In this document: positions 30,471 through 42,089 of the stretch, piece by piece | Numbering within the stretch: the stretch's first letter is position 1 | Layout: the number at the start of each line of letters is the position of its first letter | Assembly (NCBI GenBank): GCA_039586795.1 | Contig: JBDHJS010000005.1 | Coordinates: forward strand, 67,096 to 131,095 | Length of the DNA stretch: 64,000 nucleotides | DNA from: Gemmatimonadota bacterium | Lineage (GTDB): Bacteria; Gemmatimonadota; Gemmatimonadetes; Palauibacterales; KS3-K002 | Reading direction: 5' to 3' | Notes under the pieces: model-generated | The model's input: the letters and a program-made list of their open reading frames with translations, nothing else | Told to the model about the DNA's origin: nothing | The model's database searches: none | Translations under genes and position numbers: made by a program

Positions 30471-31742
30471 ATGAACCGGCTAGTTCCCGTAGTGCTCGGA
30501 CTGTGTCTTGCCGTCGCGTTGGCGATTCCCGCCGCTGCCTGGGCGCAGGACGATGTTACAACCGAGAAGCCCATCATCGAGATGTACCGTGAGAGCCCCG
30601 ATGCCATCCCGCTGGATCCCAGAGACCCGAGCCGCAATCTCACGGCGCTATTCCGAGATTGCTCGGAGGTGCAAGGTCGCGAACCGGGGCCAATCAACAT
30701 TCAGCGGGCGATCGGCGGCCTGGCGTATCAAGGCATTCCCACGTTCTTCCGCGCACCCGTGGCACTGTGTCCGCAGGACCTCGTCGCCGGCGAGGTCGAT
30801 GTGGCTATCATGGGCGCTTCGCAGGACATGTCGACGGGACAAAGGGGAACGGCGTACGGGCCACAAGCGGTTCGCACGGGTGAGGTCGTCGGAGCCTGGG
30901 GTGATCTCGTGCATCCGGCGCATCCCGCAGTGGGCGAGATCGACTTCTTGCATGTCCTGAACGTCGTCGACTATGGCGATGCTCCGGTGGACATCCTTTC
31001 CACTGAGCGGTCGATTCTGCCGGTGCACCAGATGGTCAAGGAGATCGCCGAGACCGGCGCCATCCCGGTAATCGTCGGCGGCGATCACTCGCTGATGTAT
31101 CCCGACGTCGTCGCGATCACCGACGTCTACGGTAAGGGAAACGTCGGGGTCATCCACTTCGATGCCCACTTCGATGGCATCCCGCTCCTCTTCGGTCACT
31201 ACCTGTCCCACGGCGCACCGGTGCGCCGGCTGATCGACGAGGGCCATGTCAACGGCAGGAACTTCGTTCAGATCGGACTCAATTCGCAGAAGCCCGGCGC
31301 CGCGGACATCGAGTGGATGCGCGAGAACCAGGTACGCTACCACTTCCTGGCCCAGATCGACCGTGACGGGTGGCCGGCGGTGATGGAGCAGGCGTTGGCC
31401 GAGGCGCTGGACGGCCCGGAAATGATCTTCATCTCCGTCGACACTGATGTCCTCGACCCTGCATGGGCCCCCGGCATGGGGACGCCCGAGCCTGGTGGTA
31501 TGACCCCCCGTGAGCTGTTCCCAATCCTCCGGGCGCTGGGAATACAGAACAAGGTCGTCGGCATCGAGCTGGTCGAGGTTAATCCCCTAACCGACCCGAC
31601 CTATCGCACGAAACAGGTCGCGGTCCGCATCCTCCGCGAGCTGCTCACCGGCGTCGCGATGCGTGAGCTGGGGATCACCGATCCGATGTATCTGGATCCG
31701 TTGTGGACGGACCATGATGTGCCAGTGGGGGGTGGGCGGTAG
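30471..31742 (+). CDS. Secreted agmatinase/ureohydrolase-family enzyme
   Basis: Signal peptide (AWA-Q); GGDHS, HFDAHFD, SHG, SVDTDVLDP, PGMGTPEPGG, ELVEVNP. Confidence 0.9.
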   Translation: MNRLVPVVLGLCLAVALAIPAAAWAQDDVTTEKPIIEMYRESPDAIPLDPRDPSRNLTALFRDCSEVQGREPGPINIQRAIGGLAYQGIPTFFRAPVALCPQDLVAGEVDVAIMGASQDMSTGQRGTAYGPQAVRTGEVVGAWGDLVHPAHPAVGEIDFLHVLNVVDYGDAPVDILSTERSILPVHQMVKEIAETGAIPVIVGGDHSLMYPDVVAITDVYGKGNVGVIHFDAHFDGIPLLFGHYLSHGAPVRRLIDEGHVNGRNFVQIGLNSQKPGAADIEWMRENQVRYHFLAQIDRDGWPAVMEQALAEALDGPEMIFISVDTDVLDPAWAPGMGTPEPGGMTPRELFPILRALGIQNKVVGIELVEVNPLTDPTYRTKQVAVRILRELLTGVAMRELGITDPMYLDPLWTDHDVPVGGGR

Positions 31743-33170: not shown

Positions 33171-33698
33171 ATGGGAAGACGACATTTGCGAAAGGCGACC
33201 ACGGCATGGGTCGCGCTTGCCATGCTGACAGCTGCACCAGCCGCTGGCCAGGAGGCCCACGGAGATTCAAACGACGATCACTTCCACGCCAATCACGTGG
33301 CCGTGATGGCAGGCGGTATGACCCCGCTCGCCGAGACCAGCGAGACCTCGTTCGCGCTGGGGGCCGATATCGAACGGCGCTTCAATCCGACCTGGGGTTT
33401 CGGCATTGGAATCGATTTCACGTTCGGGGACCATAAGCGGGCGGCGGTCGTTGGCACCGGCGTGACCTATCGCCCGATACCCGACCTGAAGCTCGGCACC
33501 GGTCCCGGCTTCGAGGTGGTGGAGACGGACACCAGCTCGGGTGGGACGAAAAAGAAGCTCTACTTCATCTGGGGGTTTATTTTCGGCTACGACTTCCACG
33601 TCGGATCGCTATCCATTGGCCCCCTCGTCTTCCTCGACTTCGTGGGCGAAACGAAGACCAACATCACGTACGGCATCTCGGTGGGAACGGGGTTCTGA
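33171..33698 (+). CDS. Small outer-membrane beta-barrel-like protein with His/Asp-rich N-terminus
   Basis: Signal peptide, AHGDSNDDHFHANH, alternating beta strands, terminal Phe. Confidence 0.7.
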   Translation: MGRRHLRKATTAWVALAMLTAAPAAGQEAHGDSNDDHFHANHVAVMAGGMTPLAETSETSFALGADIERRFNPTWGFGIGIDFTFGDHKRAAVVGTGVTYRPIPDLKLGTGPGFEVVETDTSSGGTKKKLYFIWGFIFGYDFHVGSLSIGPLVFLDFVGETKTNITYGISVGTGF

Positions 33699-40886: not shown

Positions 40887-41074
40887 TGGTTTCCTCCTGA
40901 ACAGTCCCACCCGGACCACTCTACAGGCATCTACGGCGATACAGAGAGCAGGGTTTCGCACCGCTGAAGATGATGAGAATCCGTTGACGTAGCCATGCTA
41001 TGGTGGTCGCGGTCTGTGGGGCTGTTTGGGTGCGGCGCGTTGACTACCCGGCTTCGCCATCTCACGGCGAACGT

Positions 41075-41158
41075 ACCCCCGTGGCGGAATTGGTAGACGC
41101 GCCTGTCAGCCAAATAGGTGACCGAAAGGTCGTGTGGGTTCGAGTCCCACCGGGGGTA
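41075..41158 (+). tRNA. Atypical class II tRNA: tRNA-Leu body with GCC (Gly) anticodon and A33
   Basis: Acceptor ACCCCCG/CGGGGGT + A73; D arm GCGGAATTGGTAGACGC; anticodon stem CCTGT/ATAGG, loop CA-GCC-AA; variable arm GACC-GAAA-GGTC; T arm GTGGG-TTCGAGT-CCCAC. Confidence 0.9.
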
Positions 41159-41190
41159 CGCCACAAGAATCTTCGAAATCACCTGCGTTC

Positions 41191-41220
41191 TTGACTCGCC
41201 GCAAGTGATTAGAGTATCCT
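41191..41220 (+). promoter_or_regulatory. Candidate sigma70 promoter downstream of the tRNA
   Basis: TTGACT (41191-41196) -18 nt- TATCCT (41215-41220); -35 lies in the loop of inverted repeat AATCACCTGCG/CGCAAGTGATT (41177-41210). Confidence 0.5.
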
Positions 41221-41225
41221 TTCTG

Positions 41226-41293
41226 TGGCTGACAGGCAGTAAGTTTCGTCACGGAACGAGCCCGGAGGATGATCCCTCCGGGCTCAGTCTTTT
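41226..41293 (+). ncRNA. Candidate ~68-nt small RNA (or pre-tRNA 3' trailer) complementary to the tRNA anticodon arm
   Basis: TGGCTGACAGGC (41226-41237) is the reverse complement of 41101-41112; hairpin GTTTCG-TCA-CGGAAC; then terminator. Confidence 0.5.
41258..41293 (+). terminator. Intrinsic terminator
   Basis: Perfect 11-bp stem GAGCCCGGAGG/CCTCCGGGCTC, 6-nt loop, followed by AGTCTTTT. Confidence 0.75.
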
Positions 41294-41321
41294 GGGTGTC
41301 TTCCGCTTCAAACGCAAATTC

Positions 41322-42089
41322 TCAAAACCGATAGACGCCCGATAGCACCGCGTAGTGGAGCCACGCGAAGTTGTAGACCGACTCGACGTCCGCTCCGCCT
41401 TCCAGAGTGCGATATCCGCCCCTGACGCCCCAGTGGTCGTTGATGTCGTAGCCGAGCTTGAGGGCAACGTCGAACGCGCGACCGGGCCCGCCGGCCAGGC
41501 CGTCGAAATCGAACACGAAGTGCCACTTACGGGCGAACCGCCAATCGGCGGCCAGGTAGAGCAGCGGCACGAAGCCGACGTCGGTGTCCTTGCTGGTCGT
41601 GCTCCCCTGCGCCAGCTCGATCTTCGCGTCGCGGATCTTGGTCGTGAACCCGACCCACAGTTTCGTGCGCTCGCGGTCCATGAAGCGATAGCGATAGCCG
41701 AGGCGCCAGGAATTGAACTTGTAGGTCGCCTCGACGGGTTGGTCGGGCCGGTAGGTTGCGCCGGCGAAGTCAACCGGCTCAGTGAAGGTACCCGACTCGG
41801 TGTAAGACAGCGGCGCGGCGAGGCCGCGCAGGCTGTGGCGGTTGTTGATATTCCAGGTGACATAGAGGCGAACGGCAGGCCAGGGGCCATTCCCAACCAG
41901 GTCGACGAGCGAGAACCGGGTGCCCGCGTTGGTGTTCGGGATCTGCACGTCGTTTCGGCTCTGCCATACGGGTCCCGCCTCGAGCTCGATCACGAATCTC
42001 GACCCGTCCTGCGCGATTGCGGTTGGCACAACAGTGCAAACCAGCACCGCAGCGATCAGACAGGGCATCAGCTTGCTCACCTGTCGCAC
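41322..42089 (-). CDS. Outer-membrane beta-barrel-like hypothetical protein
   Basis: GTG 42089 after GGAGG, signal peptide (AIA-Q), amphipathic strands, ends VYRF. Confidence 0.78.
   Translation of the reverse strand: MRQVSKLMPCLIAAVLVCTVVPTAIAQDGSRFVIELEAGPVWQSRNDVQIPNTNAGTRFSLVDLVGNGPWPAVRLYVTWNINNRHSLRGLAAPLSYTESGTFTEPVDFAGATYRPDQPVEATYKFNSWRLGYRYRFMDRERTKLWVGFTTKIRDAKIELAQGSTTSKDTDVGFVPLLYLAADWRFARKWHFVFDFDGLAGGPGRAFDVALKLGYDINDHWGVRGGYRTLEGGADVESVYNFAWLHYAVLSGVYRF

Follow-up and report, generated by a model that had tools for sequence, protein, structure and literature searches.

Our analysis of the window, a 64,000-nt stretch of a Gemmatimonadota genome, shows that a tRNA annotated as tRNA-Gly is a real gene with a Leu-type body, and that it lies in a compact cassette together with a short antisense unit complementary to its own anticodon arm. 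From these sequence relationships we propose that the cassette encodes an RNA-only toxin-antitoxin pair, in which a tRNA that would misincorporate leucine acts as the toxin and the antisense RNA as its antitoxin, and we place the probability of this reading at about 0.65. More tentatively, at somewhat short of even odds, the pair may be a protein-free addiction module wired to competence, with a code-breaking tRNA as toxin and an anti-anticodon RNA as antitoxin, so that curing by transformation would kill the cell.

The cassette is arranged on the forward strand in the order promoter P1, leader, Leu-type tRNA(GCC), promoter P2, antisense RNA of about 70 nt and terminator, and spans about 360 bp. 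In a genome of the same genus (G002, contig C64) both flanks have their match but the stretch between them is absent, and in the pairwise alignment position 40959 joins about 41320; since this genome has the flanks without the stretch, we consider the promoters, leader, tRNA, antisense and terminator to be one insertion of about 360 bp (40960..41319, edges approximate, +/- about 10 nt). No target duplication is visible at the divergence of this genome, and no mobility enzyme was found for the cassette. P1 (40971..41004), which we regard as a competence-type promoter, consists of the direct repeat ATGA-N7-TTGA followed after 11 nt by the -10-like box TATGGT. Downstream is a structured 5' leader (41011..41074), for which an alignment of 27 sequences gives a consensus hairpin and whose first bases are predicted to pair with the 3' trailer. 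The tRNA gene itself (41075..41158) is followed by this conserved trailer, CGCCA (41159..41163), which pairs with G-2 and the start of the leader. P2 (41191..41220), a sigma-70 type promoter of the form TTGACT-18-TATCCT and probably constitutive, would drive the antisense segment (41226..41255), the predicted antitoxin, which begins 68 nt after the tRNA end and is complementary to the anticodon arm and the D-arm helix. An intrinsic terminator-like hairpin (41258..41293), with an 11-bp stem followed by AGTCTTTT, closes the antisense RNA and is kept in relatives. A P2-type -35 box with a -10 box at 16-18 nt occurs in 63 of 78 family members, compared with 0 of 23 tRNA-Leu controls, and in those 63 the pair of boxes stands at a fixed distance.

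No ORF of at least 80 aa lies wholly inside the 360-bp insertion on the forward strand, and a peptide toxin is unlikely because conservation follows the RNA structure. When the leader and antisense were searched against Rfam, only RF00005 passed, the other matches being far below their gathering scores. The copies of the cassette occupy insertion sites unrelated to each other, and no protein neighbour is conserved across the 78 copies among their 126 flanking ORFs. The role as aminoacyl donor that an earlier note on this DNA had suggested is weakened by this result, and we reject the version in which the donor serves an adjacent enzyme, since no gene for a transfer partner is conserved beside the tRNA copies. 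In the host genome, a second copy (G000:C70:17908-17992) follows immediately after the gene for leucyl-tRNA synthetase and lacks one base in the 5' strand of its acceptor stem; this leuS neighbour seems incidental, as do a gltX found at one shared site and a single ArgRS-like ORF. Two assembled contigs, X18 and X19, cover parts of the cassette and show neither transcript ends nor strand. The former (41222-41438), the one contig from an RNA library, begins just after the -10 box of P2, but it may represent DNA rather than a transcript because it runs beyond the terminator.

ARAGORN calls a tRNA-Gly(gcc) at 41075-41159, and Rfam matches RF00005 to 41075-41158 with 48.3 bits, a complete cloverleaf and a long variable arm. 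The anticodon GCC (41109-41111) stands in the loop CAGCCAA (41107-41113), in which position 33 is A. The earlier note had described the intact cloverleaf with its long variable arm, A15:U48, A20a, A73 and this loop with A33, and had set the gene apart from tRNA-Gly with its U73 and G1-C72; all of this was borne out. A1-U72, A15, U48, G18G19, A20a and A73 are all there, 12 of the 12 Leu determinants listed are matched, and the Leu identity test found U8-A14, G18-U55, G19-C56 and U54-A58 besides the long variable arm. Bacterial LeuRS relies on A73, A15-U48, G18G19 and A20a and ignores the anticodon, according to PMC9976931 and PMC2377443. The tRNA-Gly determinants, in contrast, are matched at C35-C36 only, and membership in tRNA-Gly is rejected by A73, A1-U72 and a variable region of 15 nt, in place of the U73, G1-C72 and short loop given in PMC9976931. 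When the anticodon arm is masked, the four top-scoring ordinary host tRNAs are all tRNA-Leu. In the family, A73 is kept in 77/78 and U48 in 71/72 copies, neither being forced by the search pattern, while the D-arm and T-loop determinants of relatives were in part imposed by it. Two further pairs that the earlier note did not include, G-2:C74 and U-1:A73, extend the acceptor stem. The note had also overlooked the promoters, leader, antisense gene and terminator around the tRNA, which we regard as the decisive context.

The loop, which the earlier note had marked for checking against reads, is the same in contigs of independent runs, namely X3 (40935-41359; 2 listed differences, of which none is reported for the loop) and X5 (41081-41342; 0 differences), and for this reason an assembly error is rejected. 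The genome check that it had also proposed showed that the host has a normal tRNA-Gly(GCC) as well as ordinary tRNA-Leu genes with five anticodons (CAA, TAG, TAA, GAG, CAG), which rules out genome-wide recoding of Gly. On another contig of the same genome (C82), two tRNA-Ile(GAT) copies at 31559-31626 and 33599-33672 lie 2 kb apart, one of them intact and the other 5'-corrupted.

The family was defined by a search of 60 genomes, 30 from the same family and 30 from the sister family, and by a metagenome scan whose pattern combined the leader end with the acceptor stem and which yielded 30 further loci. Strong matches (E at most 1e-12) were found in 16 of the 30 same-family genomes, frequently with multiple matches in one genome, whereas the 30 genomes of the sister family gave no match of this strength. 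Neither search selects on the anticodon, and together they give 50 distinct records with the anticodons GCC (25), GCG (16), ACC (3), GGC (2), GCT (2), GTC (1) and GAC (1), that is, of the Gly, Arg, Ala, Ser, Asp and Val classes. A Leu anticodon occurs in 0/50; five matches that do have one are ordinary tRNA-Leu(CAA) genes, without leader or antisense, and lie outside the 50. The central claim of the earlier note, a Leu identity joined to an anticodon that is not for Leu, thus holds for the window and for the whole family, but the anticodon is not fixed as Gly. The GCC anticodon, which lacks the A35 of Leu anticodons, together with the absence of a Leu anticodon from all 50 copies, likewise rules out a tRNA-Leu isoacceptor. 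A random pseudogene is rejected by the compensatory changes, which affect all 5 pairs of the anticodon stem in 27 aligned copies, and by the covariation with the antisense described below; in this the earlier note, which had judged a divergence confined to the loop to be unlike random decay, was right.

The codons read by the family anticodons are among the most used in the host genome, where GGC ranks 4, GCC 5, GAC 7, GTC 8 and CGC 13. Among 37 distinct anticodon arms, G34 and a purine at 37 are each kept in 36. Positions 32-33 are the most variable of the loop (1.8 and 1.4 bits); U33 is kept in 23 of the 37 arms, and the window copy has A33, which would lower the efficiency of decoding and counts against our preferred reading. 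The GC-rich anticodons could also have been selected as pairing toeholds and not for decoding. The most serious rival, which we consider improbable, builds on these points: the toxin-antisense pair would be the same, but the tRNA would do harm without decoding, by titrating LeuRS, EF-Tu or processing enzymes or by stalling ribosomes, and its loop would mainly be a toehold for the antisense. The variability at 32-33 fits this proposal, as does the description in PMC5389517 of two allo-tRNA variants that killed cells with no codon suppressed. The retention of a 7-nt loop, a 5-bp stem, G34 and the purine at 37 speaks against it, and a pure decoy would have no need to avoid Leu anticodons as consistently as these 50 records do.

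When Leu-type tRNAs with S35-S36 anticodons were sought across GTDB, 104 loci were obtained, 54 of which have a downstream complement; these comprise 49 of the 51 loci labelled as Gemmatimonadota, two Planctomycetales, one contig labelled as Burkholderiales and two other bacteria. The cassette thus recurs at unrelated sites, mostly in Gemmatimonadota, and its distribution is patchy, since the strict pattern is present in 9 of the 401 genomes of a phylum sample. Viral contigs contain no match to the subfamily, and in the 400 nt downstream of the 7 viral loci found with the generic pattern no antisense match exceeds 6 nt, so we reject an origin from phages.

Other layouts were seen elsewhere. 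Three loci labelled as Saccharibacteria (L096, L176, L169) have a Leu-type tRNA(ACC) and, downstream, a direct copy of 12-15 nt of its own anticodon arm, which in the first two lies behind a two-way terminator-like hairpin; judged from this arrangement, their antisense RNA would come from the opposite strand in a convergent layout. Five loci labelled as Terriglobia or Acidobacteria (L077, L079, L137, L141, L162) combine a Leu-type tRNA with the Pro anticodon UGG and a complement of 9-12 nt to the anticodon loop; this complement shares the strand of the tRNA, lies 45-64 nt upstream of it and is possibly a leader-based lock. Six more (L073, L081, L083, L090, L093, L116), from unrelated taxa and one viral contig, show Leu-type D arms, GCC or ACC anticodons and imperfect acceptor stems, with no antisense.

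The decay of the cassette is one-sided. Subtracting 3 reverse-strand self-matches of the terminator from 54 pattern matches leaves 51 real antisense/terminator units among 55 loci; 35 of these units accompany a whole tRNA, and in the other 16 the tRNA is absent or truncated. The whole class includes a tRNA with a one-base acceptor deletion (L038), and two loci with partial tRNAs (L042, L060) escaped the pattern; in L042 the tRNA is 5'-truncated and the antisense intact. None of the 35 is an undamaged whole tRNA without an antisense. Only two whole tRNAs have no matching antisense, and both are damaged, one by C56U and a broken acceptor pair (L014) and the other by an insertion in the T loop (L017), and a further tRNA without antisense (L044) is truncated. 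The toxin would thus be lost before the antitoxin, the pattern that an addiction module predicts. In four loci (L051, L053, L058, L048) the tRNA was deleted by the joining of short sequences common to the leader, tRNA and antisense, and these deletions spare the promoter and terminator. In eight loci (L003, L017, L043, L044, L049, L064, L181, L207) a REP-like double hairpin of about 60-80 nt interrupts the T loop, always at one and the same position, and presumably inactivates the tRNA.

The upstream regions of the cassettes share the motif TTGA-N7-(T/A)TGA, followed after 11 nt by TA-N3-T, which was found in 46 of 47 aligned regions; P1 of the window copy scores 26.0 with a matrix built without that copy. 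In the host genome, a matrix built without its two copies gives 21 sites above 15 bits, as opposed to 1 in the reversed genome. These sites include recA-recX, dprA, UPF0102, recQ, a GspH-type pilin, an integrase, Uma2, ssb and topA, and the motif is also present at the comEA-like gene, comEC, comM and radC. The names comEA, comM and comF are labels that we assume for matches to Pfam HHH_3, Mg_chelatase and DZR_2, as yraN is for another Pfam match. In a test devised after the fact, the upstream-end scores are 8.6 for comEC, 8.9 for comM, 14.9 for radC and 1.9, a weak value, for comF. All eight competence genes considered in the host genome (comEA, comEC, comF, comM, radC, dprA, ssb and recA) are positive, whereas eight of nine repair/SOS genes (two uvrA, uvrB, uvrC, dinB, an imuB-like gene, ruvA and lexA2) score between -4 and -14, and lexA1 shows a distant match of 6.4. 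The motif is present in each of the 31 family genomes, whereas no reversed control contains it. When one site per genome is taken, the first in the list, it falls at recA (4/30 loci), dprA (3) or a comM-like, radC, uvrD-like or obg gene, so that relatives too carry it at recA, dprA, comM and radC. It also precedes genes of protein toxin-antitoxin systems (HigB/HTH, HicB, Gp49/HTH, PIN).

Genes with the competence motif are those reviewed in PMC12378983 for DNA uptake and processing, and because the motif is common to such genes and not to repair genes, we infer that P1 is a competence-type promoter. The link holds for this subfamily only, as no P1 motif was found in 33 more distant cassettes (best score 1.4). 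In a wider form, TTGA-N7-WTGA-N11-YA-N3-T, the motif appears to mark a competence-type regulon on host contigs C24, C49, C50, C77 and C96 and in 30 family genomes; it also stands ahead of integrase and four-helix-bundle (23S rRNA IVP) genes. Two LexA-type genes are present (host contigs C2 and C23; L238, L239) and the start of neither carries the motif; on this ground, and because eight of the nine repair/SOS genes are negative, control of P1 by LexA is rejected. Control by a WYL protein of the PafBC type is rejected as well, since a first-look search of the 97.8% complete host genome gave no WYL match. PafBC-type promoters, tGTCgg-N10-tA-N3-T as given in PMC8635444, resemble P1 in that the upstream element ends about 10 nt before a TA-N3-T box and in their presence at recA; P1 differs from them in its sequence, in the tandem repeat with a period of 11 bp and in having competence rather than repair targets. 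The fixed spacing, as in PafBC promoters, suggests that an activator acts at P1.

The presence of this promoter class in 31/31 family genomes is also what would be expected if the cassette served the host, mistranslation during competence arresting growth or diversifying proteins and the antisense setting the threshold. The tisB/istR-1 pair offers a precedent for a host-regulated toxin under antisense control (PMC8145889, PMC7708055). Against a host switch stands the patchy, multi-copy occurrence of the element, found in 16/30 genomes of the family, 0/30 of the sister family and 9/401 of the phylum sample, at unrelated insertion sites and often with its tRNA half decayed, and we give this explanation about one chance in ten.

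Nucleotides 41226-41237 are a perfect 12/12 complement of tRNA positions 41101-41112 in the anticodon arm, and the antisense also forms a 13-bp helix with 41079-41091, at the acceptor base and D arm. When co-folded with its own tRNA, the antisense forms a duplex of 27 bp and gains -13.8 kcal/mol; the gain is -5.5 kcal/mol for the second host copy on C70 and about 0 for the ordinary tRNA-Gly(GCC) of the host and for its five tRNA-Leu. Of the 47 subfamily copies with enough downstream sequence, 45 contain an exact complement of 8-16 nt, the exceptions being the damaged L014 and L017, whereas all 23 ordinary tRNA-Leu genes reach 4-7 nt, that is, an antisense in 0/23. For 35 distinct anticodon arms, the cognate duplex averages -24.6 kcal/mol and the non-cognate -12.1 kcal/mol, with the cognate antisense ranking first for 25 arms and among the top three for 32. 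None of 100,000 permutations matches the observed pairing sum, a significance that is overstated because the copies are related; among the copies with GCC only, the values are -24.8 and -14.2 kcal/mol. The duplex spans positions 34-36 in 78/78 records, which were chosen for having a complement. By these computed energies, the antisense would be specific for its cognate tRNA. Mismatches of the wobble type in the D-arm helix are biased towards G-U (25, of which 14 are at one position, against 5 A-C), which favors pairing at the RNA level; this bias is absent from the anticodon helix (12 G-U, 11 A-C).

This lack of bias, the 12-bp perfect inverted repeat and the patchy insertion would also fit a non-toxic relic of mobility or integration, the complement being an inverted repeat in DNA, such as an attachment or recombination site, and the tRNA a by-product. 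We regard such an origin as very improbable, given that the complement lies, in 63/78 copies, at the predicted start of a unit that has a promoter and a terminator of its own, that it changes with every arm, that the tRNA and leader helices covary, and that no recombinase is found among conserved neighbors.

In the 27 aligned copies, the leader hairpin, the leader-trailer helix, the 9-bp extended acceptor and the anticodon stem are paired at 96-100%. The leader helix has 8 pairs, of which 5 are changed on both sides, with 95.8% pairing, and the leader-trailer helix reaches 97.5%; the T stem has 5 bp in 27/27 copies (99.3% paired). The leader in the minimum-energy fold of the window copy differs from this consensus. 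CCA directly follows A73 in 0/50 copies and stands two bases further on in 21/50. We read these features as a closed precursor that would delay maturation of the tRNA. We consider a mature 9-bp acceptor ending in G-CCA unlikely, given how few copies have that CCA; a mature RNA of this form (41073-41163), charged with serine like an allo-tRNA, is a very improbable reading, for although the window copy has a complementarity of 9-10 bp, G-CCA and a long variable arm, its 9+5 = 14 bp would exceed the 12-bp branch of allo-tRNAs described in PMC5389517, and C2-G71, an anti-SerRS signal according to PMC9976931, is kept in 70/78.

The explanation that we favor, a mistranslating tRNA with an antisense antidote, has at its core the suggestion of the earlier note that Leu would be inserted at Gly codons, and it could operate as follows. 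The tRNA combines a body with Leu determinants and an anticodon that reads GGC, an abundant non-Leu codon, as seen in its sequence, and from the established rules of LeuRS the host enzyme should charge it whatever the anticodon. P1 would fire along with the competence genes, and the leader and trailer would fold the transcript into a closed, slow-maturing precursor. The RNA from P2, presumably made constantly and unstable, would pair through the anticodon loop and open the anticodon and D arms, inactivating the precursor or the tRNA; the covariation behind this step is observed, and the function is what we propose for it. Should the cassette be lost, for example when transformation replaces it with an empty allele, the antisense would decay, the stored tRNA would mature, and a proteome-wide substitution of Gly by Leu would stop or kill the cell. 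Diversification of the anticodon arms would keep several copies per genome mutually independent. We base the presumed toxicity on two precedents: a Ser-charged allo-tRNA with a Leu anticodon kills E. coli (PMC5389517), and a tRNA-ProX with A33 still mistranslates (PMC11415595).

These precedents are related systems without being the same. The allo-tRNAs with 8/4 or 9/3 geometry (Mukai et al. 2017) share the long variable arm and the mismatch between identity and anticodon, are lethal in E. coli and are found near toxin-antitoxin genes, as PMC5389517 reports. They have, however, Ser or Ala identity and an altered acceptor/T geometry, whereas the cassette tRNA is a canonical 7/5 molecule with Leu identity; its membership among them is rejected because the T stem has its full 5 bp in 27/27 copies and is not shortened. 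The term "antisense" is absent from the main text of PMC5389517. Streptomyces tRNA-ProX with ProRSx is likewise a natural mistranslating tRNA family with several anticodons and A33, but it has Pro identity, A34 and a co-encoded dedicated synthetase, and no antisense partner is described in what PMC11415595 covers of it. G34 in 36/37 arms and the lack of a conserved synthetase neighbor separate the cassette from that family.

By nomenclature, the cassette as read from its sequence would fall under type VIII, of which TADB 3.0 (PMC10767807) lists only creTA and SdsR-RyeA. As in that type, both partners are RNA and are encoded within 200 bp, on the same strand as is also the case for creTA, and the layout agrees, with two close RNA genes and no toxin ORF of at least 80 aa seen. 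The mechanisms differ, in that CreT sequesters host tRNAs and CreA acts on transcription through CRISPR-Cas in the published accounts, and that SdsR and RyeA overlap on opposite strands, whereas the cassette antisense is a separate gene on the same strand. Unlike both examples, the proposed toxin is itself a tRNA and its antitoxin is complementary to the anticodon arm. In hok/sok, a type I system, an antisense antitoxin likewise acts over a structured toxin transcript. The type I pair tisB/istR-1 is similar in its stress-regulated toxin promoter, structured inactive primary transcript and small antisense antitoxin (PMC8145889, PMC7708055); the cassette probably encodes no toxin protein, its target is a tRNA, and a competence-type promoter takes the place of LexA control. 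Within the open-access full-text literature that we searched, we found no tRNA with a dedicated anti-anticodon RNA, nor any RNA-only toxin-antitoxin pair that kills by mistranslation.

If the proposal is true, a tRNA gene is placed under the control of its own antisense RNA, and mistranslation becomes a killing mechanism of RNA-only toxin-antitoxin systems. It would provide a testable answer to why bacteria keep mismatched tRNAs, such as the allo-tRNAs and tRNA-ProX, that are lethal when expressed. The analysis also warns that the tRNA genes of such cassettes are mis-annotated as tRNA-Gly, tRNA-Arg or tRNA-Ala, and it brings to light a competence-type promoter motif in a phylum that has hardly been studied. 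The cassettes would, moreover, be a source of dozens of natural pairs, orthogonal to one another, for switching a tRNA on and off. For the organisms that carry it, the cassette would be a 360-bp RNA-only defence against chromosomal curing, one that ties a selfish element directly to natural transformation, and, with similar pairs in Planctomycetota, Saccharibacteria and Acidobacteriota, it would belong to a widespread class and account for many tRNA genes with a "wrong" anticodon.
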